A stretch of 63,186 nucleotides of DNA, counting the filler, from Methanobacteriota archaeon (lineage in GTDB: Archaea > JACRDV01): the NCBI GenBank assembly GCA_024860865.1. It is 10 parts of 10 records of this genome, joined end to end, with 100 filler letters (N's around TTAATTAATTAA, not from the genome) between each part and the next. Parts side by side here need not be neighbours in the genome. Positions count along the whole stretch, not along the records: positions 1 to 12,157 come from JACRDV010000141.1; 9 more parts are not named here. One strand, 5' to 3'. How positions within the stretch are numbered: position 1 is the first letter of the stretch; each line of letters starts with the position of its first letter. The position numbers and the translations under genes were made by a program. Below the pieces are notes generated by a model, which saw only the letters and a program-made list of their open reading frames with translations, made no database searches and had not been told where the DNA came from. Shown one piece after another: positions 1,038 through 63,186 of the stretch.

Positions 1038-2588
1038 CTAAATAAAAGCGCCAGCATCCTTTTGTTGTTGGTTTGTTTTTTCTTCAAACATTAGGGCTGC
1101 CTTTTCTAAATTGACTCCGTGCTCTGAAGGATAGGAATTTCGCTCTCTAATCCTTACAAAAATGGGGTAATTTACCGCCTCTCCAACAATTAATGCCTCT
1201 CCAATTTTCAATGTAGAAATTGCATCGAGCACGTCACGGGTAATTCCTTCAGAGCTTTTGCCAATGTGTTCAAGATCATATGGATTAGTAACTCGCAATA
1301 TTATGTGGCTGTTACATTGGCTCAAAACAGTTGTTGAAAGCCTTACAGGACGCTGGCTAATTAAACAAAGTGAAGCATAGAACTTCCTGCCTTCACGAGC
1401 AATTGTTTCAATAATCCCTTTTGAAATTGCGCTTCCGCGACCAGCTTCAGGACAAAACTGGTGCGCCTCTTCTATTATTTCGACATAAGGAGGAATTTTT
1501 CCATCGCGCCTCAGATTAAACAATCGCCTAGAAAGATAGTTCACTATTATCTGTTTTTTTCGCAAATTTGTTATGCCACTTAAATCAATTATTGATGCTT
1601 GTCCCGGCTTAGCAATTTGATCTATTGGTGGATTATCATAGCGACCGAATAATCCAATTGTTTCTAAATTTTCAAGCCAACTAACTAAAGTTTCTTTAAT
1701 TTTGATGTTTATTTGCTCATCTTGTACAACCCTGCTCATCAAATCCCTCAAATCAAATGGGCCGCCACCGGAATACATCCGCGCTTTTAACTCTTTAATA
1801 ATTCTTGCCAGCTCACGTTTTTGAGGCGGGGTTATATCCGGTATGAACTCAGCTATTTGCTCAGGGCTCAGATTTGGCACTCCAATCTGAATTTCTTTGC
1901 TCTCAAAGACTTGAGTTCGATCAGAATAATCAGTATATTTTTTATCTTCAACACGTTTTGCAAAACCAGTGTACTCTCCATGGGCATCAATTACGACGAC
2001 TGCAACTCTGCCATGCTCAGGTGTTCGATTGACCAGTTCTTCGATCAACACACTAGCCAAATATGACTTGCCAGCCCCGCTTATCGCAAGAATTGCCACA
2101 TGCTTCTGAAGAAGTCTAGTCAAACTTAGCTTAACTTGTAGACCATGAAAACGGAGTGATCCAATAAACAGCCCCTTCTCTCTATCAAGCCCAATAAAAT
2201 CTTGTAAAGTTCTTTCATCTGCCAAATAAATCTTCTCACCTGGAGAAGGTGGAAAAGTTGCTCTATCTAGACCATCAGAATTGTAAACAGCTAGAGGTCT
2301 CGCCTCTGCAACAGTATACTCCCAACGAGCTGCCGGATAAATCGAAGTTAATGACTTGCCGCTTCGCTCATACTCCCTAACAGATTCTGCACGAGCAAAA
2401 TATTGGTTTGTTTTATATACATCGCTAACTGTTGCAACTAACTTTCCTTCTTTTGTTTTTAGCTCAACAAACTGACCTTTTCTAATAGGAATTACATCAA
2501 CTTCATCATTTATCACAAAGGAAAAAGTCATCGAAGAAGGCCCTTCTGGCGTTGAAATTACTGTCCCGATTTCCTTCATAGTTCTCAC
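1038..2588 (-). CDS. herA: HerA bipolar DNA helicase/ATPase
   Basis: HAS-barrel N-terminus, Walker A AISGAGKS, IIEEAHQF, IAREGRKF, SQRP; overlaps nurA. Confidence 0.9.
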   Translation of the reverse strand: MRTMKEIGTVISTPEGPSSMTFSFVINDEVDVIPIRKGQFVELKTKEGKLVATVSDVYKTNQYFARAESVREYERSGKSLTSIYPAARWEYTVAEARPLAVYNSDGLDRATFPPSPGEKIYLADERTLQDFIGLDREKGLFIGSLRFHGLQVKLSLTRLLQKHVAILAISGAGKSYLASVLIEELVNRTPEHGRVAVVVIDAHGEYTGFAKRVEDKKYTDYSDRTQVFESKEIQIGVPNLSPEQIAEFIPDITPPQKRELARIIKELKARMYSGGGPFDLRDLMSRVVQDEQINIKIKETLVSWLENLETIGLFGRYDNPPIDQIAKPGQASIIDLSGITNLRKKQIIVNYLSRRLFNLRRDGKIPPYVEIIEEAHQFCPEAGRGSAISKGIIETIAREGRKFYASLCLISQRPVRLSTTVLSQCNSHIILRVTNPYDLEHIGKSSEGITRDVLDAISTLKIGEALIVGEAVNYPIFVRIRERNSYPSEHGVNLEKAALMFEEKTNQQQKDAGAFI

Positions 2589-3730
2589 CTAAAAGGTCTC
2601 AGATTTCGGCGAAGTTCAAACAAAGATATCGCTCTTCCAACTCTATCCATTATCTGCCCATGAACAAATTCTAAATTATCTTCAGAAAGTTTTGCTCGCA
2701 CATCTGCTTCAGTTAAAACAGTTGGAAAAGCATAAGCATCATGATGTTTTGAAAGTGCAAATACAATCGAAGAGACAATATTTGCTGTTTTAGTGAGCTT
2801 ATCAGTGCACAAAAATTCAATCCGCAATGGTCGGTCAAACATAGCTGGTTTCAAGTAAAGAGTAAAAATCTTTGAAGCCCAATCTATGTGAATATCTTGA
2901 AGTGTTGGATGTTTTGCCGGTGCATCTGAATATCTAAAGGCATAGCTTCGCTCTCCAACATCTAGTATATAGTGCAAGAAATGAGTATCGCGAATTTTAT
3001 CAAAAATTTTGATAGATTTGTTGAACGTAACTCGGATTCCTTCATCAATGTGATTTTTCAATAATGATTCTAAAATTTTTCTTCTAAAAATGTCAATAAA
3101 GCGGGTGCCTCTGCTGTCTTCAACTACTCCAACTAAAAGTATCTTATTTTTTTCACATTGTTCATAAAGCTCCTCTAAAAGCTTGATTACCTCGGCATAT
3201 CTGCTTTGAATTTTAGAATTTTTGCTTGGCTTATCAGAATGTTGTGGTGCGATTGACCCATCCAAGAAAATCACATCAGCAGTATATTTTTTGAGAACGT
3301 CGTTTGCAGTTTTTAATTCAGCTTTTTGTCGCTCTAGCGATGTGCTAAGTCCAAAATCTAGATAGGATAACGAGTCAAGGAGCAAAATAGTTGAAGGCTC
3401 TGGCATAGCCTCTGGATAATATTGAACCTTTCTCAAAACCCCTTCTCGATAGTTAAAAATCGCAGCAACAGCCCGAACTAAAATTAGATCGAGACTATGA
3501 TAAGGCCGATTCACAACACCTCCATCGACCCCTATGGCCGTAAGTTGGTCCAAGTTGTGAGGATGAATTGAATAAACAAATTTATCTTCCGAAGTCTCAA
3601 ATTCTAGCCCAAATTTTGGAGGATTTATTTCCTGCTTGAGCGCCCTAACTGCATCGCCTATCTCTCTTAAACTCCATTCAAATTCGAGAATATTCTTTGC
3701 AATTAACTCTAAAACATCTTCAGACGGCAT
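2585..3730 (-). CDS. nurA: NurA 5'-3' nuclease
   Basis: GVDGG, IFLDGS, GVVEDS and FPTVLTEAD motifs; adjacent to herA. Confidence 0.88.
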   Translation of the reverse strand: MPSEDVLELIAKNILEFEWSLREIGDAVRALKQEINPPKFGLEFETSEDKFVYSIHPHNLDQLTAIGVDGGVVNRPYHSLDLILVRAVAAIFNYREGVLRKVQYYPEAMPEPSTILLLDSLSYLDFGLSTSLERQKAELKTANDVLKKYTADVIFLDGSIAPQHSDKPSKNSKIQSRYAEVIKLLEELYEQCEKNKILLVGVVEDSRGTRFIDIFRRKILESLLKNHIDEGIRVTFNKSIKIFDKIRDTHFLHYILDVGERSYAFRYSDAPAKHPTLQDIHIDWASKIFTLYLKPAMFDRPLRIEFLCTDKLTKTANIVSSIVFALSKHHDAYAFPTVLTEADVRAKLSEDNLEFVHGQIMDRVGRAISLFELRRNLRPFR

Positions 3731-3973
3731 TAAAGTCCTCGTATAGCATAAATCGGTTTATAATATCCCAGCTGTGGCTTAAATGCGTTTTTCTTTGTGT
3801 TTTTACGATTAAAAAGAAGGTTAATGTTATAGGGGGGGTTCACCGAAAGTATTCGAAAAGTTAATAAGAAAAAGCTAATAATAAAATTGTTTTTAACATG
3901 AAAGGAGTGAAAATTGTTTTTGTCGAATTTTCTACCCTAGCTTGGAAGCTATTATATCTTACGAATCTATAGA

Positions 3974-4331
3974 GGGCCCGTAGCTCAGCCAGGGAGAGCG
4001 CCTGGCTTTTAAAGGGGATGGCGAGAGATGAATCCCGAGTTTATTAAAGATGAAAGAAAATATAGAGCAAGAAGAGTGCATAAAGTATATAGAAAACTTG
4101 CTAAAGAAATATTAGCTAGGGTAAAGACCAGTAAAACACTAAAAAGAGATTTTGATTGGGCATTTTTTCCCACAAGTGTTTGCGATAGAAGAGCAGTAAA
4201 GGGTAATAAAACACATTCAATTGAAAATTTGACAAAAATACAAAATAAATTTCAAGAAATTCTAAAAAATTTTTATCTCGTCACCTCTTAAAGTAACCAG
4301 GTGGCCCGGGGTTCAAATCCCCGCGGGCCCG
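3974..4331 (+). tRNA. tRNA-Lys(UUU) with 284-nt intron at 37/38 (4012-4295)
   Basis: 5' exon GGGCCCGTAGCTCAGCCAGGGAGAGCGCCTGGCTTTTA; 3' exon ACCAGGTGGCCCGGGGTTCAAATCCCCGCGGGCCCG; BHB helix CTTT/AAAG with 3-nt bulges. Confidence 0.92.
4028..4291 (+). CDS. basic 87-aa hypothetical protein encoded inside the tRNA-Lys intron
   Basis: ORF fills 264 of the 284 intron nt; AGGGG upstream; no family recognised. Confidence 0.5.
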   Translation: MNPEFIKDERKYRARRVHKVYRKLAKEILARVKTSKTLKRDFDWAFFPTSVCDRRAVKGNKTHSIENLTKIQNKFQEILKNFYLVTS

Positions 4332-4353
4332 CTCTGATTTTGGAGGGAGTGGA

Positions 4354-4599
4354 TTGGCTGTAAAAAAAGTTGAAGTGCTCAAACACCAACTCGTGCCAGA
4401 ACATCGCGTTTTGAACGAAAAGGATGCGAAAAAAGTGCTTGCAAAATTTAATATACATCCAATACAATTGCCAAAAATCCTTGCAAATGACCCGGCTGCA
4501 AAATCTGTCGGCGCTAAACCTGGCGATATACTCGAGATAGCCCGAGAAAGTTCAACAGCTGGAAAAGCGTTAGCATATAGGCTTGTTGTGGAAGATTAG
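4354..4599 (+). CDS. rpoH: RNA polymerase subunit H (Rpo5)
   Basis: HQLVPEH...LPKI..NDP...GDILEI.RES.TAG...YRLV; GGAGGGAG RBS. Confidence 0.97.
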
Positions 4600-4609
4600 A
4601 GGTGGTTTT

Positions 4610-7600
4610 TTGAAATTCGGTACCAGCGACACATGGGTTTTAGTTGAAGCATATCTAAAAGAAAAAGAACTGGTAAGTCAACACTTGGATTCTTTTAATG
4701 ATTTTATTGAAAACAGGTTACAAAGAATTATTGACGAAATCGGAGAGATTGATCCAGGATTAGAGCGTTTTAAAGTTAGGCTTGGAGAGATAAGGATTGG
4801 AAAACCTCTCGCCAAAGAAGCCGATGGTGCTGTTAAAGACATCTATCCAATAGAAGCGCGCTTGCGAAATTTGACTTATGCTGCTCCAATTTTTTTAGAA
4901 ATAATCCCAGTTAGAGATGGAGTTGATCAAACACCTGTTGAAGTTCAAATAGGCATGCTTCCAGTCATGCTCAAATCCAAAGTTTGCCATCTGCATGGGT
5001 TATCTAATGAAGACTTAATTAAAGTTGGTGAAGACCCCCTCGAACCTGGCGGTTATTTCATAATTAATGGCTCTGAGCGAGGCCTAGTAACAATCGAGGA
5101 TTTAGCCCCAAACAGAATCATGGTTGAACGAACTGAACGCTATGGTAGAGTAGTTGAAGTCGCAAAAGTCTTTTCTAGGCGACGTGGCTATCGAGTTTTG
5201 GTTGTAGTTGAGCGGAAAAAAGACGGTATTCTAAGCGTATCCTTCCCTTCTGTACCCGGTCAAGTACCTTTTGTTATTTTGATGCGTGCTCTTGGAGTGG
5301 AAAAGGACCAAGATATTGTGAATGCAGTTTCAAGTGACCCAGAAATTGTTCGAGAAATGCTGGACAACATCGAAGCCGCAAGAGAAATTGAAAGTCAAGA
5401 AGATGCTCTCGAATATATTGGAAAGCGTGTTGCTGCAGGTCAAGCCAAAGAATATCGACTAAGGCGCGCTGCTCAAGTTGTTGATACCTATTTGCTCCCT
5501 CACATTGGTATATCAGCTGAAGATAGAATACGCAAAGCATACTATCTTGGAAGAATGACTGAGAGCACAATTGAGCTTGCACTTGGAAAACGCGGTGAAG
5601 ACGATAAAGACCACTATGCGAATAAAAGACTCAGACTCGCAGGGGATTTAATAGAAGATCTATTTCGTGCTGCTTTTCTAAATTTAGTGAGAGATGTTCG
5701 CTATCAACTAGAGCGTTCTTCAATGCGTGGGCGTGAACCTAATATTCAAACTGCAGTGAGAGCTGATGTTTTAACTGAACGATTGTTGCATGCTTTAGCA
5801 ACTGGGAATTGGGTTGGTGGTAGAGCCGGCGTGAGTCAGTTGCTTGACCGTACAAATTATCTTTCAGCTCTTTCTCACTTGCGGCGAGTTATTTCACCAT
5901 TAAGTCGAAGTCAACCTCACTTTGAAGCGAGAGACCTACATCCCACCCAATGGGGCAAAATCTGCCCTGCAGAAACTCCAGAAGGCCCTAATTGCGGTTT
6001 GGTAAAGAACTTAGCACTTTTAGTGAATACCTCAACAGGAGCAGAAGTTGGAACTATTTTAGAAACTCTCCAAGATCTTGGAGTAAAACCTCTACAACAG
6101 GTTGAACGGAAAAAACTAGCTCGTGTTTACCTAGATGGTAATTTAATCGGCATCCATGAAAATCCGGAAAGACTTACAAATCAAATCCGTGAAAAACGCA
6201 GAAAGGGCCAAATTTCAAGCGAAGTTAATGTTGCTTATTATCCTGAAACAAATGAAGTTCTAATTAACGCTGATGCTGGTCGAGCTAGAAGACCCCTTAT
6301 CATTGTTGAAGATGGAAAAACAAAGCTCACAGAAGACCACATCCAAAAATTAAAAAACAGAGAACTTCGCTGGAGTGATTTAATCAGACTTGGAGTCATC
6401 GAATATCTTGATGCTGAAGAAGAAGAGAATACCTTTATCGCACTTTCTGTTGACTCTCTAGCAAAAGAGCATACTCATCTTGAAATTGACCCGGCTGGAA
6501 TTCTTGGAGTTTGTGCCGGAGTTATTCCATATCCAGAACACAACTCTTCACCACGCAATACAATGGGGGCAGGAATGGCAAAGCAAGCGCTTGGACTATA
6601 TGTTGCTAACTTTAAATTTAGAGTTGACACTAGAGCACACCTCTTGCACTATCCTCAAGCACCAATTGTTAAAACAAAAGTGCTTGACGTAATCCATAGC
6701 GACGAACGGCCAGCAGGTCAAAATTTAATTGTCGCTGTAATGCCATTTGAAGGCTATAACATGGAAGATGCTGTAATTCTAAATAAATCCTCGATTGAGC
6801 GAGGGGTGAGTCGTTCAACTTTCTTTAGGACATATGAAGCAGAAGAACGGAGATATCCTGGCGGTCAAGAAGACAAATTTGAAATTCCGCCAAAAGATGT
6901 TCGAGGTTATAGAACTGAGGAAGTTTACAAGTTCTTAGATCAAGATGGATTAGTTTTAGTTGAGTCTGAAGTTGATGCAGGAGAGGTCCTAATAGGCAAA
7001 ACTAGCCCACCAAGATTTCTTGAAGAAGCTGAAGAGTTCGGGATAGTCGCAGAGAATCGCCGAGAAACTTCTGCCACAATTCGCCATGGTGAGCAGGGCG
7101 TCGTGGATCTGGTAATTCTAACGGAGAACTCAGATGGAAATAAACTTGCTAAAATTAGAGTGCGAGATTTAAGAATCCCGGAACTCGGAGATAAGTTTGC
7201 TTCTAGACACGGTCAAAAGGGGGTTGTTGGGTTAATAGTACCGCAAGAAGATATGCCATTTAATGGTGAAGGCATAGTCCCTGATTTAATAATCAATCCT
7301 CATGCAATTCCTTCAAGAATGACTGTTGGACAAGTCTTGGAAATGATAGGCGGTGTTGTCGGATCTACTGAAGGCAGAAGAGTTGATGGAACTGCTTTTA
7401 GTGGGGAAACCGAAAAAGATCTTAGAGAAGCGCTGAGAAAAGCTGGATTTAAACATAATGGAAAGACTATCTTTTACAATGGTACGAGTGGACAGATAAT
7501 CGATGCTGAAATTTTTGTTGGAATTTCATATTACCAAAAACTCCACCATATGGTTAGTGGAAAGCTTCATGCTCGCTCACGTGGTCCAGTTCAAGTCCTA

Positions 7601-7924
7601 ACTCGACAACCGACTGAAGGCCGTGCCAGAGAAGGTGGATTGCGATTTGGTGAAATGGAGCGAGATTGCTTAATTAGCCATGGTGTAGCATTAGTGCTAA
7701 AAGAAAGATTGCTTGATGAATCCGATAAATACCAAGTTCTTGTATGTTCAAAATGTGGGATGGTTGCAGTTCGTGATGAAGCTCGTGGCAGGGATTATTG
7801 CTCAGTTTGTGGCGATGAGAGCGAAATCTATTCTGTAGAAATGTCATATGCATTCAAATTGCTTTTAGATGAGCTCAAATCGCTATGCATTGCTCCGCGG
7901 CTTAGATTGCAAGATATTGTTTGA
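4610..7924 (+). CDS. rpoB: RNA polymerase subunit B (unsplit)
   Basis: [37 protein letters not shown]; likely TTG start at 4610 after GAGGTGG. Confidence 0.97.
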
Positions 7925-7934
7925 GGTGAAAATC

Positions 7935-10900
7935 GTGCCAATCGTAGGTGCTCCGAAAAGAATATCAAAAATTGATTTTGGAGTGCTCTCGCCCGACGAA
8001 ATCAGAAAGATGTCTGTCATCAAAATTATAACTGCTGATACATACGATGAAGACGGTTACCCTATTGAAAGAGGACTGATGGATCCAAAGCTTGGCGTCA
8101 TAGATCCTGGCCTCCGCTGCAAAACCTGCGGGGGACGAGTTGGCGAATGTCCCGGCCACTTTGGGCATATTGAGCTTGCAGCACCAGTTATACATGCTGG
8201 ATATGCAAAGCAAATCTATGAAATGCTTAGAGGCACTTGTCATGCTTGCAATAAAATTCTGTTATCTGGAAAACAAACTGAACATTTTAAGAAAACAATG
8301 GAAGAAGCTGAAAAAAATGGAGAGGATAAGTGGGTTATTTTGGATAAAATCTTACAAACTACCAGAAAAGCAAAAAAGTGCTTAAAATGCGGAACCGCAC
8401 AAAAAGAGATGAAATTTGAAAAACCGACTACTTTAATTGAAGATGGACATAGATTAACGCCATCTGATATTCGAGACCGTCTAGAAAAAATCCCGAACGA
8501 AGACGCCCAGTTATTAGGAATTGATACTAAAGTTGCGCGCCCAGAATGGATGGTTTTAACTGTTTTAACGGTTCCACCAGTGACTGTGCGTCCTTCTATC
8601 ACTTTAGAAACGGGAGAACGATCTGAAGATGATTTAACCCATAAGCTAGTTGATATCCTTAGAATTAATCAACGTTTGCGAGAAAACAGAGAGGCAGGAG
8701 CCCCTCAACTTATTATTGAGGACTTATGGGAATTACTACAATATCACATTACAACATATTTTGATAACGAAGTTTCTGGTGTTCCACCGGCAAGACACAG
8801 GTCTGGTCGCCCACTTAGAACACTTGCTCAGCGCTTAAAAGGAAAAGAAGGGAGGTTTAGGAGCAATCTTTCAGGTAAACGTGTTAACTTTTCTGCGAGA
8901 ACTGTCATATCTCCTGACCCAAATATCAGCATAAACGAAGTTGGCGTGCCTGAAGTAGCTGCAAAAGAACTCACTGTTCCTGAAAAAGTTACATCCCGCA
9001 ATATTGAGGCGCTAAAACAACTGATAATAAAGGGTCCAAATGTACACCCCGGGGCAAACTATGTTTTACGCCCAGATGATAGAAGAATTAAGATTACTGA
9101 TGAAAGTAAAGATAAAATTATTGCGGAATTGGCTCCGGGCTACACTGTTGAAAGGCATCTTGCAAATGGAGATCTTGTTCTTTTTAACAGGCAACCATCG
9201 CTTCATCGGATGTCAATAATGGCTCATGAAGTAAAAATCATGCCATATAAAACTTTTAGGCTAAACCTTTGCGTATGCGTAGCCCCTGAAACAAAACTAA
9301 CACTCGACGGATTTCAAAGACCTATAGAGCAACTTAAAAATTGTTGGAAGGAGTCTCAAGTAATAACCTATAAAAACAATCAAAAGATTTTTAAAACGTC
9401 TTTATCAGCTTTTTGGAGCTTGAAGCCAAAAGATTATGGCAAACGCATACTTAAGATAAATACAAACAACGAGAGAGAATTAATAGCAACTGAAGATCAT
9501 CCAATCTATACGATAAGGGGTTTGGTAAAAGCTGGTGATATAAAAATTGGTGATAGGGTTATCGTTTACCCAATAGAATTCCCTGAGTATGAAGATGTAG
9601 AAAAGGTAATTCTAACTGAAAATGATATAGTTAAAAGTGCTACAAAACAAACTTATGTTAAACATCTAATAAGTGAATTGAAAAAAAGAAATCTACTACC
9701 ACTTGCTCTATTAAACAACCCGAAAGCTTTGATATTAACTAAGTTACTTGGTCATATTTTTGGAGATGGGGCATTAATTTTGAAAGATGACGTAGGAAGA
9801 GCTGTATTCAGAAGTGATGTTGAGGATTTGGAAGATATACAAAATGATATTAGAATGCTTGGATTTGAGCCTGGTGAGATAAAAACAAGAGAATATAATG
9901 CTGAAATAACTACATACGAGAGCAAGAAATTAAAAGTTAGTTCTGTTGGAAGCAGTTTTGAAGTAAGAAACAAAGCATTTGCTACTTTGATGAAGGCTCT
10001 TGGTGCACCAAATGGGGATAAAGTTTTGTTAGATTATAAGGTTCCAAAATGGATTTTGGAATCGCCAAAATACGTTAAGAAAGTATTTTTGGCCGCATAT
10101 TTTGGTTCTGAATTGACAATACCTGCCCTAAGGAAAAATTGCAAAAAACTGTTCAGGGAACTTGTGTTTAAGATAAGTAAGATAGAAGATAAAATAAATT
10201 ATGCTGATGACTTTATTAAAGGTATCGAATTCTTGCTAAAAGAATTTGGCATATCCATATCGTCAATCTCAAGAGAAAATGGAAATATTAGAAAAGATGG
10301 TAAAAAGACAAAAATAACAATAGTAGCACTTTGCTCAGACTTAGAATCTGCTATCAATTTCTTTGGGAAAATAGGTTACATATACAATAGGAAAGCAGAT
10401 TCTATCGCAAGACTAGCATATCAATATCTGAAATTTAAGAAGGAAGAACTTAAAAAACGTAAGAAGATTCTATCTGACATAAAGGTTTGGAATAGAAAAA
10501 GTGAAAGCTTACTTTCTATAGCTAGAAGGAATGGTATAAGCGTAAGCACATTATATAATTGGAGAAGTAGGGGTGTTAACGAAGAATCACTTAACACATC
10601 GCCAGATTTCCTTGATTTTGATGAATGGTTAAAAACTAATTGCTATGATGTTAAAAGTGGGCTTGTAATTGAGAAAGTGATTAGTGTTAAAGATACTTTT
10701 ACACCATATGTTTATGATATAACTACAACTGCTGACACACATAATTTTATTGCTAATGGCTTTCTGACTGGAAACTGCCCTCCCTATAATGCAGACTTCG
10801 ATGGGGACGAAATGAACCTACATGTAATGCAAGGTGAAGAAGCGCAAGCTGAAGCACGAATTTTAATGCGTGTTCAAGAACAAATTCTTTCACCGCGCTT

Positions 10901-12077
10901 TGGTGGACCAATTATCGGCGGAATTCATGATCATATCTCTGGAGCATTTATATTGACTAGAAAAGAGACCGCCTTTACCAAAGGAGAAGCTTACCAATTG
11001 CTTAGAGCTGCTGGAATTGAAAAAGATCTCCCAGAACCAGCTATTAAAGAACGCAAAGCTGAATACTGGACTGGCAAACAACTTTTTAGTATGGCGTTGC
11101 CAGAAGACTTTAATCTTAGTTATAAAGCAAAATTTTGTACAAAATGCGAAAAGTGTCTGAAAGAAAAATGCCAAATTGATGCATATGTTGTGATAAAAAA
11201 TGGTCAGTTAATTTGTGGAGTTATGGATGAAAAATCATTTGGCGCTTTTGCTGGAGACTTACTTGATCGGATAGTTAAAGATTATGGTACTGATGTAGCA
11301 AGACAATTTCTAGATTCAGCAACTAAACTTGTAGTTAAATCGCTTATGAAAAAAGGTTTTAGTGTTGGAATTGATGAGGAAGATATACCAACTGAGGCAA
11401 AAGAACGAATCGAAGATATATTGGACCGCGCGAAACAAAAAGTTAACGACCTCATTGATGCCTACAAAAAGGGAGAACTTGAACCCCTACCAGGTAGAAC
11501 TCTAAAAGAAACTCTTGAAATGCAAATAATGAGAGTCTTAGGTGAATCCAGAGATAAAACTGGTAAAATTGCTAGCGAGTATTTGGGTCTTAGTAATCAC
11601 GCTGTTTTGATGGCTAAAAGCGGTGCACGCGGAAGTATGCTAAATCTTACCCAAATGGCCGCTTGTGTTGGACAGCAAGCAGTTCGAGGGGAACGGATTC
11701 ATCGTGGTTACCGCAATCGAACCTTACCTTATTTTAAGCCAGGAGACCTGGGTGCAGAAGCTCATGGATTTGTAAGATCAAATTACAAAAGTGGACTTAA
11801 TCCGCTCGAATTTTTCTTCCATTCAATGGGGGGTAGAGAAGGATTAGTTGATACTGCAGTCAGGACTTCACAAAGTGGTTACATGCAACGGAGATTAATA
11901 AATGCGCTCCAAGACCTCAAGGTTGAATTTGATGGAACAGTGCGCGATAATAGAGGCGTTATAATCCAATTTAGCTATGGCGAAGATGGAATTGATCCCT
12001 CAAAAAGTGATTGGGGTAAAGCAGTGAACGTTTATAAAATAATTGAGAAGGTTTTAGGTCCGGAGGCCAAAGCTTGA
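7935..12077 (+). CDS. rpoA1: RNA polymerase subunit A' containing an intein
   Basis: CKTC...CPGHFGH, NRQPSLH, NADFDGD, AVRTSQSGYMQRR; GTG start 7935 after GAGGTG. Confidence 0.96.
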   Translation: MPIVGAPKRISKIDFGVLSPDEIRKMSVIKIITADTYDEDGYPIERGLMDPKLGVIDPGLRCKTCGGRVGECPGHFGHIELAAPVIHAGYAKQIYEMLRGTCHACNKILLSGKQTEHFKKTMEEAEKNGEDKWVILDKILQTTRKAKKCLKCGTAQKEMKFEKPTTLIEDGHRLTPSDIRDRLEKIPNEDAQLLGIDTKVARPEWMVLTVLTVPPVTVRPSITLETGERSEDDLTHKLVDILRINQRLRENREAGAPQLIIEDLWELLQYHITTYFDNEVSGVPPARHRSGRPLRTLAQRLKGKEGRFRSNLSGKRVNFSARTVISPDPNISINEVGVPEVAAKELTVPEKVTSRNIEALKQLIIKGPNVHPGANYVLRPDDRRIKITDESKDKIIAELAPGYTVERHLANGDLVLFNRQPSLHRMSIMAHEVKIMPYKTFRLNLCVCVAPETKLTLDGFQRPIEQLKNCWKESQVITYKNNQKIFKTSLSAFWSLKPKDYGKRILKINTNNERELIATEDHPIYTIRGLVKAGDIKIGDRVIVYPIEFPEYEDVEKVILTENDIVKSATKQTYVKHLISELKKRNLLPLALLNNPKALILTKLLGHIFGDGALILKDDVGRAVFRSDVEDLEDIQNDIRMLGFEPGEIKTREYNAEITTYESKKLKVSSVGSSFEVRNKAFATLMKALGAPNGDKVLLDYKVPKWILESPKYVKKVFLAAYFGSELTIPALRKNCKKLFRELVFKISKIEDKINYADDFIKGIEFLLKEFGISISSISRENGNIRKDGKKTKITIVALCSDLESAINFFGKIGYIYNRKADSIARLAYQYLKFKKEELKKRKKILSDIKVWNRKSESLLSIARRNGISVSTLYNWRSRGVNEESLNTSPDFLDFDEWLKTNCYDVKSGLVIEKVISVKDTFTPYVYDITTTADTHNFIANGFLTGNCPPYNADFDGDEMNLHVMQGEEAQAEARILMRVQEQILSPRFGGPIIGGIHDHISGAFILTRKETAFTKGEAYQLLRAAGIEKDLPEPAIKERKAEYWTGKQLFSMALPEDFNLSYKAKFCTKCEKCLKEKCQIDAYVVIKNGQLICGVMDEKSFGAFAGDLLDRIVKDYGTDVARQFLDSATKLVVKSLMKKGFSVGIDEEDIPTEAKERIEDILDRAKQKVNDLIDAYKKGELEPLPGRTLKETLEMQIMRVLGESRDKTGKIASEYLGLSNHAVLMAKSGARGSMLNLTQMAACVGQQAVRGERIHRGYRNRTLPYFKPGDLGAEAHGFVRSNYKSGLNPLEFFFHSMGGREGLVDTAVRTSQSGYMQRRLINALQDLKVEFDGTVRDNRGVIIQFSYGEDGIDPSKSDWGKAVNVYKIIEKVLGPEAKA
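9276..10775 (+). mobile_element. 500-aa intein with LAGLIDADG homing-endonuclease region in RpoA'
   Basis: Starts CVAPET, ends HNFIANGFLTGN|C; LLGHIFGDG and FLAAYFGSE blocks; removal restores RLNLCV-CPPYNADFDGD. Confidence 0.95.
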
Positions 12078-14551: not shown

Positions 14552-14641
14552 GGGCCCGTGTTATAGTCTGGATTAGCATCCAGGGCTCCGGTCTTCGGGA
14601 GATACCCTGGGACCCGGGTTCAAATCCCGGCGGGCCCGCCA
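14552..14641 (+). tRNA. tRNA-Arg(CCG) with 12-nt intron at 37/38 (14592-14603), encoded CCA
   Basis: GGGCCCG/CGGGCCC acceptor, CAGGG-CT-CCG-G|TCTTCGGGAGAT|A-CCCTG, BHB CTCC/GGAG; D-stem weak. Confidence 0.85.
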
Positions 14642-32265: not shown

Positions 32266-32455
32266 AGTAACCACTAAACAATGCATAAAAGTATACATAG
32301 TTTTTCAATTGAATCTAAAAAGGAAAAGTTTAAAAGAGTAAAGTCTTTAGGGCAAAGAATTTTTTCTTTGCTATAGCTATTTTGTATTTATTTTTTAACC
32401 ATTGTTTTATTATTTTTTGTTTGCTAAAAATAGGCTAGTAAAAGTAAAAAGCATA

Positions 32456-32568
32456 TGCGGGGGCAGGGATTCGAACCCCGGAAAGGCCTACGCCTACAGG
32501 ATTTCTTAGGCGGCTCTTAAGTTTGGCAGAATTATCTCCTGCCCTTTTAACCGCTCAGGCACCCCCGC
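32456..32568 (-). tRNA. tRNA-Leu(UAA) with introns at 30/31 (32523-32537) and 37/38 (32503-32515)
   Basis: Spliced: GCGGGGGTGCCTGAGCGGTTAAAAGGGCAGGACTTAAGATCCTG...GTTCGAATCCCTGCCCCCGCA; BHB helices GGCA/TGCC and CTTA/TAAG. Confidence 0.88.
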
Positions 32569-32664
32569 ACAAAGATATTTTGTTTTCTTAATGTTTAGTT
32601 ATTGCTATTATGATGGTCTATTATGCAAACATTAGATTCTCAGCGGAATCCGATAATTAAGATG

Positions 32665-32784
32665 TGCCTCGGACGGGATTTGAACCCGTGTTCTCGGCTC
32701 GATTGGCCACAGGTTTGGAGACCACCTGTTGAGGCCGAGATCCTTAACCGGGCTAGACTACCTTAGCCAGCTTACGCTTGAGGC
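32665..32784 (-). tRNA. tRNA-Glu(CUC) with introns at 5/6 (32763-32779) and 34/35 (32703-32730); duplicated acceptor strand at 32803-32809
   Basis: Spliced: GCCTCGGTAGTCTAGCCCGGTTAAGGATCTCGGCCTCTCGAGCCGAGAACACGGGTTCAAATCCCGTCCGAGGCA. Confidence 0.85.
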
Positions 32785-61458: not shown

Positions 61459-62961
61459 TCACTTTAGCTGGCCCGATAAATCTCGTATAATAATTGGGAT
61501 CTTTAAAAGCAAGTCAGAGGCAATTAATTGATAGCCATGCTCTTTTGCGCACATATCGCCAGCTAATCCATTAATAAAAGCTCCCGCAACTGCTGCTCTA
61601 AAAGGTTCAATTCCTTGTGACAGAAAAGCACCGACTACTCCTGCCAATACATCTCCAGTCCCACCAACGGTCATTCCGGGATTTCCAGTTAGATTAATTT
61701 TAACTCGGCCAGCAGGATCAGCTATTATATCTTTGTTTGCCTTCAACAAAAAAGTAATTTCAAGTTTTTTTGCTTGCTCTTTTACTATCTTAATTCTGGA
61801 TTCCAATTCTAATGGCAAAGTGACGCCAGTTAAAATTCTAAATTCTCCGGAATGCGGGGTAACGACACAAGGAGCGCCTGCAAGTGCAGTTGGTTTGCTA
61901 GCTAAAGCTTTAATTGCATCAGCATCGACTAAAAGGGGCAATTTTAATTCTTTTACCGCTTCAAATACCTCTAAAACAACCTCAAACGTCTTTGGGTCGG
62001 TTCCCAATCCAGGACCTATCACTACTGCTGTTGATTTCTTAATTGAATCTAACAGTTTAGGAAGTGCCCCACGCGAAAGAATATCGCCAGGCATTTTTCT
62101 CGTAATTATATCAGGTGATATTGCATTAATTGCCCAAGCAACTTTTTCTGGTGCAGCAACAATCGCAAGGTCAACCCCAGCCCTAAGAGCTCCCAATGCT
62201 GTGAGAGCCGGTGCTCCTACATAATCGATACTCCCACCGATTATTAGCAATTTTCCAAAATCGCCTTTATGTGAATTAAGCGGTCTTGATTTAATTGCAA
62301 GTGTAACATCACCTGGTCCAGCATAAATCTCAGCTTCTTTAGGAATTCCAATATCAGCCACAATAATTTCTCCAATATATTGTTCTGCTTTCACCATTCC
62401 AATTTTTTTATCATGAAAAGTTATAGTAAGATCAGATTTAATAGCAGTTCCTAAAACTTCCCCAGTGTCAGCATTAATACCAGTTGGTATATCAATTGAA
62501 ACTTTGAATGGTTTAGCAGAATTAATTAACTCAACAATTTGTGCGAACAAACCTTTCACTGGAGTTTTGAGCCCAATTCCTAAAATTGAGTCAATAATTA
62601 CATCAACATCTACGGCCTTAAGCTGTAAGAGCCCAGAAATAGGATTCAAAGTTACATTTGGAGCTTTTTCAAGAGCTCTCCAGTTCTTCTGTGCCTCAGA
62701 TGAACGAATTGACTCTGGTCGACCAAGCAAAATCACTTCTACGTTAGCGCCAGCTTGCGCTAAGTATCTGGCTGCAACAAAACCATCTCCCCCATTGCCT
62801 CCTAACCCTGCGAACACTTTAACTCCAAGATTTTTTGGGTTGAAACGCTTGGCAATTACTTCAGCAATTTTCTTGCCTGCATTTTCCATTAATTGTAATT
62901 TAGAGACTCCAAAGTATTCAGAATTAAATTCTAAGGCTCGCATCTCCTCAACAGATAACAT
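61459..62961 (-). CDS. nnr: bifunctional NAD(P)HX epimerase/dehydratase
   Basis: LMENAG, GNGGDG, DIPTG, HKGDFG, TPHSGE, GGTGDVLAG. Confidence 0.95.
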   Translation of the reverse strand: MLSVEEMRALEFNSEYFGVSKLQLMENAGKKIAEVIAKRFNPKNLGVKVFAGLGGNGGDGFVAARYLAQAGANVEVILLGRPESIRSSEAQKNWRALEKAPNVTLNPISGLLQLKAVDVDVIIDSILGIGLKTPVKGLFAQIVELINSAKPFKVSIDIPTGINADTGEVLGTAIKSDLTITFHDKKIGMVKAEQYIGEIIVADIGIPKEAEIYAGPGDVTLAIKSRPLNSHKGDFGKLLIIGGSIDYVGAPALTALGALRAGVDLAIVAAPEKVAWAINAISPDIITRKMPGDILSRGALPKLLDSIKKSTAVVIGPGLGTDPKTFEVVLEVFEAVKELKLPLLVDADAIKALASKPTALAGAPCVVTPHSGEFRILTGVTLPLELESRIKIVKEQAKKLEITFLLKANKDIIADPAGRVKINLTGNPGMTVGGTGDVLAGVVGAFLSQGIEPFRAAVAGAFINGLAGDMCAKEHGYQLIASDLLLKIPIIIRDLSGQLK

Positions 62962-63029: not shown

Positions 63030-63186
63030 GTATATGAGAGTGATACCTCACCCAAACCGGACATGAAGATTTCCCTCATCCGGCTTTTTCCACTGTTACC
63101 GCTTTGCACGGAGTCAATGTTTTGTTGCCGCCACATTGACCGGTTGATTCCATTCGGTGCCTCAGTTCGGTTTTATATTAACCTAC
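63030..63186 (-). ncRNA. 3' part of a group II intron-like RNA (D3-like, D5, short D6), no ORF visible
   Basis: D5-like AAGCCGGATGAGGGAAATCTTCATGTCCGGTTT (63054-63086); TGAGGCACCG...CGGTAACAG just upstream. Confidence 0.6.

Follow-up and report, generated by a model that had tools for sequence, protein, structure and literature searches.

A tRNA-Lys(UUU) gene of a Methanobacteriota archaeon whose intron is probably a degenerating member of a small nuclease-encoding intron family

Archaeal tRNA introns are normally tens of nucleotides long and hold no gene. Endonuclease genes occur in other introns, namely the archaeal rRNA introns that encode the LAGLIDADG homing endonucleases I-DmoI and I-PorI, and the group I intron of a cyanobacterial tRNA-fMet gene that encodes I-Ssp6803I, an oligomeric PD-(D/E)xK homing endonuclease with a tRNA-gene target. 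Here we analysed a stretch of 63,186 nucleotides from a Methanobacteriota archaeon (assembly GCA_024860865.1), called the window below, in which a tRNA-Lys(UUU) gene at 3974-4331 is interrupted at the canonical site 37/38 by a 284-nucleotide (nt) intron of the bulge-helix-bulge (BHB) type at 4012-4295, filled by an 87-codon open reading frame (ORF). We consider it probable that the window holds a functional tRNA-Lys(UUU) gene whose BHB intron belongs, in a degenerating state, to a small family of tRNA-Lys introns that encode a nuclease, presumably homing ones, and that the window ORF is a shortened homologue of the 110-amino-acid (aa) protein, hereafter the long form, which other members of this family encode.

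The family resembles I-Ssp6803I, to which it is likened here by description only, in that a PD-(D/E)xK gene lies in an anticodon-loop intron of a tRNA gene; it differs in that I-Ssp6803I is housed in a self-splicing bacterial group I ribozyme, whereas here an archaeal BHB intron would be cut by protein. With the archaeal rRNA introns it shares a protein-spliced BHB intron and an endonuclease gene that fills most of that intron, whereas the enzymes there are of the LAGLIDADG type and the host gene is an rRNA gene; here the host is a tRNA gene, the enzyme is a VRR-Nuc-like PD-(D/E)xK protein of about 110 aa, the intron is smaller (284-352 nt) and homing is proposed only. It is the combination of a tRNA host, a BHB intron and a VRR-Nuc-like enzyme that sets the family apart from both of these systems. 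Homing-endonuclease genes are known in archaeal BHB introns, according to the part of PMC6125680 used here, and the corresponding part of PMC3326292 describes ORF-bearing archaeal rRNA introns that are stable as circles after splicing, circular tRNA introns, and the tRNA-Trp intron of Haloferax and other Euryarchaeota, which carries a box C/D guide RNA and forms a stable circle. The latter is likewise a canonical-position archaeal tRNA intron with a cargo, but its cargo is a small RNA and not a protein gene. In the sections used here of a 2026 census of Asgard genomes (bioRxiv 10.64898/2026.10.13.758758), the median tRNA intron measures 22-23 nt, transposing tRNA introns of the Thermoproteales and repeated intron gains in Asgard tRNA genes are reported, and the route of arrival is stated as open. 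As far as these sections go, those introns and the present ones are alike in being related BHB introns in different tRNA genes whose positions are shaped by the BHB requirement; the former are short and gene-less, whereas the tRNA-Lys intron family offers a nuclease gene as a candidate DNA-level route. Our full-text literature searches turned up neither a tRNA gene whose BHB intron codes for a protein, though supplementary tables could list long introns, nor a PD-(D/E)xK or VRR-Nuc nuclease in any archaeal intron; our best reading is that the nuclease-encoding tRNA intron family is previously undescribed.

The window gene was missed by ARAGORN at its default settings and by Rfam at the gathering score. 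With introns allowed, ARAGORN calls a tRNA at 3974-4332 and miscalls its anticodon because the intron is placed 2 nt off. The spliced 75-nt RNA (3974-4011 joined to 4296-4331) folds into a cloverleaf at -37.9 kcal/mol with the 7-nt anticodon loop CUUUUAA, which reads Lys(UUU), and G+C amounts to 71% in the exons, 30% in the intron and 36.9% in the whole window. A permissive Rfam scan of 3800-4500 gave chance-level matches only, the best on the intron at E >1, with no significant family and neither a group I intron nor a convincing C/D-box RNA among them, and blastn and tblastn found no second copy of the intron or ORF in the 63-kb window. To judge from these sequence features, and as part of the explanation we favour, 3974-4331 is a functional tRNA-Lys(UUU) gene with the following parts.

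3974-4011, plus strand: 5' exon of tRNA-Lys(UUU), tRNA positions 1-37, with the anticodon TTT at 4008-4010 (ARAGORN, cloverleaf fold)
4006-4009, plus strand: 5' strand CTTT of the central 4-bp BHB helix, tRNA positions 32-35, pairing with 4290-4293
4010-4012, plus strand: 5' three-nt bulge TAA, with the 5' splice site 4011/4012 after TA (RNAfold favours a 2-nt register)
4012-4295, plus strand: 284-nt BHB intron at site 37/38 (homologous 352-nt introns lie at the same position in metagenome loci L001 and L002)
4013-4026, plus strand: 5' arm of the closing stem, AGGGGATGGCGAGA, rich in purines, resembling a Shine-Dalgarno sequence and lying just ahead of the ATG (pairing from the mini-substrate fold; the Shine-Dalgarno-like role is putative)
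4028-4291, plus strand: 87-codon ORF, shortened homologue of the 110-aa VRR-Nuc-like nuclease, with D53 at 4184-4186, E66 at 4223-4225 and Q72 at 4241-4243
4276-4289, plus strand: 3' arm of the closing stem, TCTCGTCACCTCTT, which also encodes the last residues of the ORF (mini-substrate fold)
4290-4293, plus strand: 3' strand AAAG of the central BHB helix, its first two bases being the last two of the ORF stop
4294-4296, plus strand: 3' three-nt bulge TAA, with the 3' splice site 4295/4296 after TA
4296-4331, plus strand: 3' exon, tRNA positions 38-73, with the discriminator G at 4331 (ARAGORN, cloverleaf fold)

The ORF thus begins one base past the 5' arm, and its stop TAA (4289-4291) lies inside the intron and overlaps the central helix; the predicted protein of 87 aa contains 22 Lys and Arg residues and has a pI of 10.3. 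When the intron is read as a circle, the in-frame codon at the junction is again TAA (intron positions 283, 284 and 1) and the longest open run remains 92 codons. An earlier, sequence-only reading of this stretch had proposed a tRNA-Lys(UUU) gene with a 284-nt intron at 37/38, a canonical CTTT/AAAG BHB with an imperfect closing stem, and an 87-codon Lys/Arg-rich ORF that fills the intron and that circularisation would not extend, and it proves right on each of these points.

Homologues of the window ORF exist and are very rare. A word-based search of 5.8 billion proteins returned one relative among 5 candidates, the 87-aa protein P0001 (95% identical), and phmmer against 1.84 billion representatives gave two matches at E<=0.001, namely P0001 and the 110-aa P0002 (E 5.7e-9). 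By BLASTP the window ORF aligns with P0002 over its full length at 38% identity (E 2e-19), with two whole-codon gaps of 18 and 6 codons, and its identity to the homologues overall is 38-49%. The use of P0002 as query added P0003, and a profile search recovered the same three clusters among 186 candidates, again in 5.8 billion proteins; in a look-up of these clusters, the long form had 6 near-identical members, the P0002 type 1 and the short form 2. A scan of JGI metagenome contigs with P0003 found relatives in three loci, L001, L002 and L003, out of 334 pattern matches. In L001 and L002 a 110-aa ORF, at 776-1108 and 5040-5372 respectively, fills a 352-nt intron at 37/38 of a tRNA-Lys(CUU) gene, so that homologues inside other tRNA introns, which the sequence-only reading had suggested looking for, do exist; L003 is 5'-truncated, and its homologous ORF ends directly before a tRNA 3' exon. 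The 128-aa forms P0003 and P0005 reflect gene-caller starts inside the tRNA 5' exon. Wherever the context is readable, the ORF family sits inside tRNA-Lys introns. No relatives were obtained from genome contigs scanned with the window ORF (214 pattern matches), from viral contigs scanned with the family alignment (141 pattern matches), or from a six-frame profile search, run without a positive control, of 844 archaeal genomes, a set made up of 5 chosen genomes, 37 further Hydrothermarchaeota, 400 Asgard archaea and a sample of 401 Thermoproteota, with DPANN and Altiarchaeota outside it.

L001 and L002 come from one metagenome and hold the same tRNA-Lys(CUU) gene with its nuclease intron. L001 (701-760) has an extra 22-nt insert in the D-loop that L002 (4987-5024) lacks, and the miscalled N-termini of P0003 and P0005 show the D-loop insert in at least two variants; it looks like a presence/absence polymorphism of a second, non-canonical intron.

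The splicing motif is shared by the window and these loci. The window BHB is of the 3-4-3 form, with the anticodon stem CCUGG/CCAGG, the central helix CUUU/AAAG, bulges UAA (splice site after UA) on both sides and an imperfect closing stem; RNAfold gives -28.4 kcal/mol for the mini-substrate and draws the 5' bulge as 2 nt, the 3-nt register being equally possible. The mini-substrates of L001 and L002 fold unaided into a perfect 3-4-3 BHB with a closing stem of 14 bp. The central helix, which is CUUU/AAAG in the window, reads CUCU/AGAG in L001-L003, a difference that follows the anticodon (U34 versus C34), and the A-to-G change in the intron strand also turns the ORF stop from TAA into TAG. In the closing stem, AGGGGAUGGCGAGA/UCUCGUCACCUCUU in the window stands against AGGAGACAACUAAA/UUUAGUUGUCUCUU in L001, two sequences that differ and that both pair. 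Among the 3-4 independent sequences that this comparison comprises, pairing in the central helix and the closing stem is thus apparently kept through compensatory changes. The introns have a common layout, in which the splice site is followed by the purine-rich 5' arm, the ORF, a 3' arm with the last codons, the stop inside the BHB helix and the second splice site, and in the long forms AGGAG lies 9 nt upstream of the ATG.

The C-terminal half of the long form carries the signature of a nuclease, FPTSVCDRIAV-G-KVYLIEIKKPGS-L--DQ, with D70, E83-x-K85 and Q95, i.e. the core pattern D-x12-ExK with a Gln ten residues after the Lys. With L001 and L002 added, the family alignment has 9 long-form rows, and CDR...IEIK (D70, E83, K85) is present in 9/9. 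Three of the five family members, all of them long forms, match PHROG 93 'endonuclease' (best E 4.5e-7), and three of five match PHROG 5702 'Holliday junction resolvase' (0.026). Against the PDB, the best match of the family profile is 4qbo_A, 'Nuclease' (E 0.055), aligned over D...ExK...Q. In the part of PMC4103454 used here, 4QBO is cited in connection with stand-alone VRR-Nuc structures, and these proteins are described as dimeric enzymes that resolve junctions and that carry, as a hallmark, a Gln ten positions beyond the catalytic Lys (K47/Q57); the long forms have this +10 spacing from K85 to Q95. A tblastn search of phages yielded one phage, Proteus phage Saba, with a 96-aa 'endonuclease' (CPT_Saba_070, E 0.03) whose gene lies between the phage DNA polymerase and helicase genes; this protein matches PHROG 93 at E 1.3e-27, and hhalign relates it to the family with a probability of 94.9% (E 4.4e-8, with 55% identity across 31 columns). 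Pfam gave no match, and none of the classical types LAGLIDADG, HNH, GIY-YIG and His-Cys box is recognised in the family, in agreement with the earlier remark that no LAGLIDADG or HNH motif is recognisable. Feature matches in the ESM Atlas of 0.80-0.84 (Mrr_cat, NOV_C, VRR_NUC and Hjc clusters) lie below the counting level and serve as leads only.

A homodimer prediction for the 110-aa form reached a score of 0.80 against 0.00 for the best of 3 controls, the runs agreeing in at least 82% of contacts and the partner pLDDT (predicted local distance difference test) being at least 72. This mark was reached by 20/30 proteins solved as pairs of one chain and by 1/23 solved as single chains, counts that hold only roughly because an own alignment was used. 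The predicted interface comprises residues 58-82 and 97-102 and resembles the sheet-plus-helix interface of VRR-Nuc as described in the part of PMC4103454 used here. As read from motif and profile matches, the 110-aa protein carries a PD-(D/E)xK nuclease core of the VRR-Nuc type and is predicted to form a homodimer through its central sheet. With stand-alone VRR-Nuc and PHROG 93 proteins it shares the D...ExK core, the Gln at K+10, the size of about 90-110 aa and the predicted dimer via central sheet and flanking helix. Those are free-standing junction resolvases of phages and bacteria, whereas the intron family is set apart by an additional basic region of about 55 aa at the N-terminus, by its location within a tRNA intron and by the absence of a Pfam VRR_NUC match, and the window copy has no catalytic Lys. 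The long form is under strong purifying selection: L001 and L002 differ by 9 synonymous and 2 non-synonymous changes (omega, the dN/dS ratio, 0.05), and against L003 the proportion of synonymous differences (pS) is 0.79, i.e. saturated, and that of non-synonymous ones (pN) 0.13.

The state of the window copy is a different matter, on which the following sites bear.

4138-4139, plus strand: place between T37 and L38 where 18 aa (54 nt) of the long form have been deleted in frame (protein alignments)
4166-4171, plus strand: T6 run in which one base is missing in a related contig (run X5), cutting the ORF to 56 codons (single contig, depth 3.1, may be an error)
4225-4226, plus strand: place after E66 where 6 aa of the long form (IKKPGS) have been deleted in frame, and with them the ExK Lys (protein alignments)

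Owing to the 6-aa deletion, the window ORF keeps the Asp, the Glu and the Gln of the catalytic motif (D53, E66, Q72) without the ExK Lys, and the ExK pattern itself is gone. Logan contigs of four runs, compared with 3400-5000, fall into three variant types. The first is identical to the window and probably comes from its source sample; the second, of the P0001 type and found in two studies, has 5 differences in the intron, of which 4 are non-synonymous and 1 is synonymous; and the third, represented by a hot-spring contig of depth 3.1, carries 7 substitutions, each of them non-synonymous and L24P and A45P among them, in addition to the 1-nt deletion. With each change counted once, the 10 distinct substitutions comprise 9 non-synonymous and 1 synonymous, a ratio that fits neutrality (P=0.35) and differs from the 2:9 of the long form (Fisher P=0.0019). 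Given the loss of the catalytic Lys and of 18 aa, the near-neutral variants and the one frameshifted contig, we read the window ORF as most likely an inactive relic, a deletion derivative of the long form.

Some observations speak against a relic. Compared with L001 and L002, the window ORF has an omega of 0.12-0.20 and its frame is open across a large divergence, which suggests that it was probably constrained for much of its history; its two deletions both preserve the frame; and few changes are counted among the variants (10 substitutions), with a depth of 3.1 for the frameshifted contig and of 3.3 for the X3 contig, depths at which sequence errors are possible. These observations also bear on an alternative that we regard as improbable and nevertheless take seriously, namely that the product of the 87-codon ORF still functions as a small basic protein, such as a derivative that binds DNA or RNA but has lost catalysis, and that it is made from the pre-tRNA or the excised circle. 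Such a protein would account for the low omega and the in-frame deletions, for the persistence of the invariant FPTSVCDR block and of E66 and Q72 at an identity of 38-49% with the long form, and for a frame that is open in the window, in the identical protein P0004 and in P0001, when an ATG-initiated ORF of at least 87 codons arose in 6 of 5000 dinucleotide shuffles of the intron. It would not account for the excess of non-synonymous changes among close variants, prolines at L24 and A45 included, for the contig cut to 56 codons or for the loss of the ExK Lys and the 18-aa segment, and an omega taken against the long form averages over the constrained branch of the latter. As such, the earlier proposal of a mobile or protein-coding tRNA intron stands insofar as this is an ORF-filled BHB intron of a real nuclease family, and falls for this particular copy, which is without the ExK Lys and 18 aa. 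Likewise, the dN/dS below 1 that it called for applies to the long form and not to the close window-type variants, and the loss of frame in orthologous introns that it said would count against it is partly seen, in one low-depth contig and in the 9:1 substitutions, the frame being open otherwise.

How the family may move is a proposal that covers its mobility, cleavage, homing, splicing, circularisation and translation. Following established archaeal biology, the splicing endonuclease EndA would cut the pre-tRNA at both bulges, and a ligase would join the exons into the tRNA and release the intron, probably as a circle. If BHB and group I introns that bear endonuclease genes are a guide, the long-form protein might then be translated from the pre-tRNA or from the released intron, with the AGGAG before its ATG as a candidate ribosome-binding signal, and repair of a cut allele from an intron-bearing one would copy the intron in, that is, homing. 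Here we speculate that the nuclease dimer targets tRNA-Lys genes without the intron and cuts them at the anticodon-stem inverted repeat, to which a two-fold symmetric dimer would be suited and which the intron splits in immune alleles. In the window copy, two in-frame deletions would have removed 18 aa and a further 6 aa with the catalytic Lys, the enzyme would have decayed, and the intron would persist as a passive insert, as RNA splicing renders it harmless and its removal would require an exact deletion at the DNA level. Beyond this, we tentatively entertain a more far-reaching hypothesis, possible but in our estimate short of an even chance, in which these are the first protein-coding BHB introns of archaeal tRNA genes, the dimeric nuclease recognises the anticodon-stem repeat, possibly as an extruded hairpin or cruciform, and thereby drives homing, and the window shows the decay phase; intron-bearing alleles could not form such a hairpin or cruciform because the arms lie 284-352 bp apart.

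Several points weigh against a homing nuclease. The window ORF, P0001 and P0002 had no Pfam match at any E up to 10, the Saba endonuclease likewise had none, and the family is not a formal member of PF08774 (VRR_NUC). AlphaFold2, run on the 110-aa form with a 5-row alignment, reached a pLDDT of 41, at which the predicted order H-H-H-E-E-E-H, though compatible with the VRR-Nuc type, is unreliable, and the dimer prediction may reflect mere likeness to solved VRR-Nuc and Hjc dimers. In the part of PMC4103454 used here, stand-alone VRR-Nuc proteins are structure-specific resolvases and not known as sequence-specific homing enzymes. An omega of 0.05 fits a host-beneficial gene equally well, and no intron-less allele of the same tRNA gene in the same population was seen in Logan contigs.

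The last three of these points are also what recommends a second alternative, in which the nuclease of the family is a host-useful junction resolvase or repair nuclease that is housed in the tRNA-Lys intron for co-expression with the tRNA and is inherited vertically. Stand-alone VRR-Nuc proteins, the closest characterised relatives, are dimeric Holliday-junction resolvases (PMC4103454, in the part used here), and the introns lie at ordinary chromosomal loci, beside SMC and ScpA genes in L002 and rpoH-rpoB in the window. Against it, the ORF occurs in genes for both the CUU and the UUU isoacceptor, is very rare (the three clusters and the 844 genomes without a match, the latter within the limits given above), and is being lost in the window lineage. 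An apparently patchy, decaying pattern of this kind is typical of selfish endonuclease genes in the homing-endonuclease life cycle rather than of a housekeeping resolvase, and we hold the resolvase explanation to be rather unlikely.

It is very improbable that an A-rich non-coding intron, possibly with a role as structural or small RNA, contains this open frame by chance. The length of the ORF on shuffles alone is only moderately unusual, since 50 of the 5000 shuffles contain a stop-free run of at least 92 codons, and the closing stem and the BHB helix fix its last codons and its stop. However, the ORF is real and not a product of chance because homologues exist, the alignment to P0002 extends over the full length with gaps of codon size, the omega and the nuclease-family match of the long form largely refute a chance frame at the level of the family, and 3800-4500 holds no significant Rfam family. 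That the insert is an assembly artefact or a chimeric join inside the tRNA gene, which the sequence-only reading had named as a way in which it could fail, is scarcely credible and can be set aside, because another study yielded a contig of 7196 nt that runs across 3400-5000, contains the intron and shows only 19 differences, the 5' exon-intron junction is also crossed by a 284-nt contig of a third study, the identical protein P0004 is on record from an NCBI contig, and the same architecture recurs in three JGI contigs; in the probable source run the contigs break off within the intron, and run X1 has no contig over about 4056-4294, but lack of cover proves nothing.

The main value of the window copy is that it led to the intact 110-aa family. 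If the 110-aa protein is a homing enzyme, it would link tRNA introns to a mechanism of mobility at the DNA level and would be a new protein fold among archaeal intron endonucleases. Made up of a 352-nt intron, its 110-aa enzyme and a palindromic tRNA target of roughly 20 bp, the system would be compact and testable and would offer a concrete DNA-level account of how archaeal tRNA introns arrive and spread. The window copy, in turn, would document a degenerate stage of the same element.

Two putative signals flank the tRNA gene, both read from sequence.

3950-3957, plus strand: TATA-like box TATTATAT, putative archaeal promoter, 17-24 nt upstream of the tRNA
4338-4341, plus strand: T-run after the tRNA, possible terminator, just before rpoH

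Downstream of the tRNA follow rpoH (4354-4599, assigned by Pfam), rpoB and rpoA', and directly upstream of it lies a HerA-NurA pair (a DNA end-resection helicase and a nuclease) at 1038-3730 on the minus strand. The rpoA' gene (7869-12077, plus strand, 1402 aa) contains an intein at about residues 483-967, between Rpb1 domains 2 and 3 (Pfam Intein_splicing, E 2.4e-14); the operon with the tRNA intron thereby holds a further selfish element. The gene after rpoA' encodes an M42 peptidase on the opposite strand, and rpoA'' is not next to rpoA' here. In a tree, the RpoB of the window is placed deep; among the best 80 loci, the nearest is a metagenome-assembled genome of the Hydrothermarchaeota at 65-66% identity, and closer relatives are possible. 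In L002, the region at 5925-9115 (plus strand) is ordinary chromosome, encoding a short SMC protein of 830 aa, ScpA, and MGMT-domain, radical-SAM and DUF5654 proteins; the SMC region has 44-49% G+C, and the remainder 31-41%.

Intron-less tRNA-Lys pieces or joints were also encountered in the Logan contigs and were rejected as alleles of the same locus, several exon mismatches marking them as other organisms. In runs X2 and X5, contigs that match only the tRNA-Lys exons (2-6 mismatches) switch to other sequence at exactly 37/38, one with 39 other letters between the exons and others with longer unrelated stretches, of which 30 letters are visible. Other organisms in those samples may thus hold different introns at tRNA-Lys 37/38.

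Elsewhere in the window, Rfam matches a Group II catalytic intron (RF00029) at 63034-63088 on the minus strand, above the gathering score (41.7 bits, E 8.1e-5); the match adjoins a YjeF/NAD(P)HX dehydratase gene at 61459-62961, and its remainder would run past the window end. Three other tRNA genes of the window look interrupted, at 14552-14641 (plus strand), 32455-32569 (minus strand) and 32664-32767 (minus strand). ARAGORN places 28-nt introns in a tRNA-Val(CAC) and in a tRNA-Ser call, the latter at an odd intron position, and in the 90-nt tRNA-Arg(CCG) it draws roughly 15 additional nt as an extra arm. Together these genes suggest an intron-rich host lineage.

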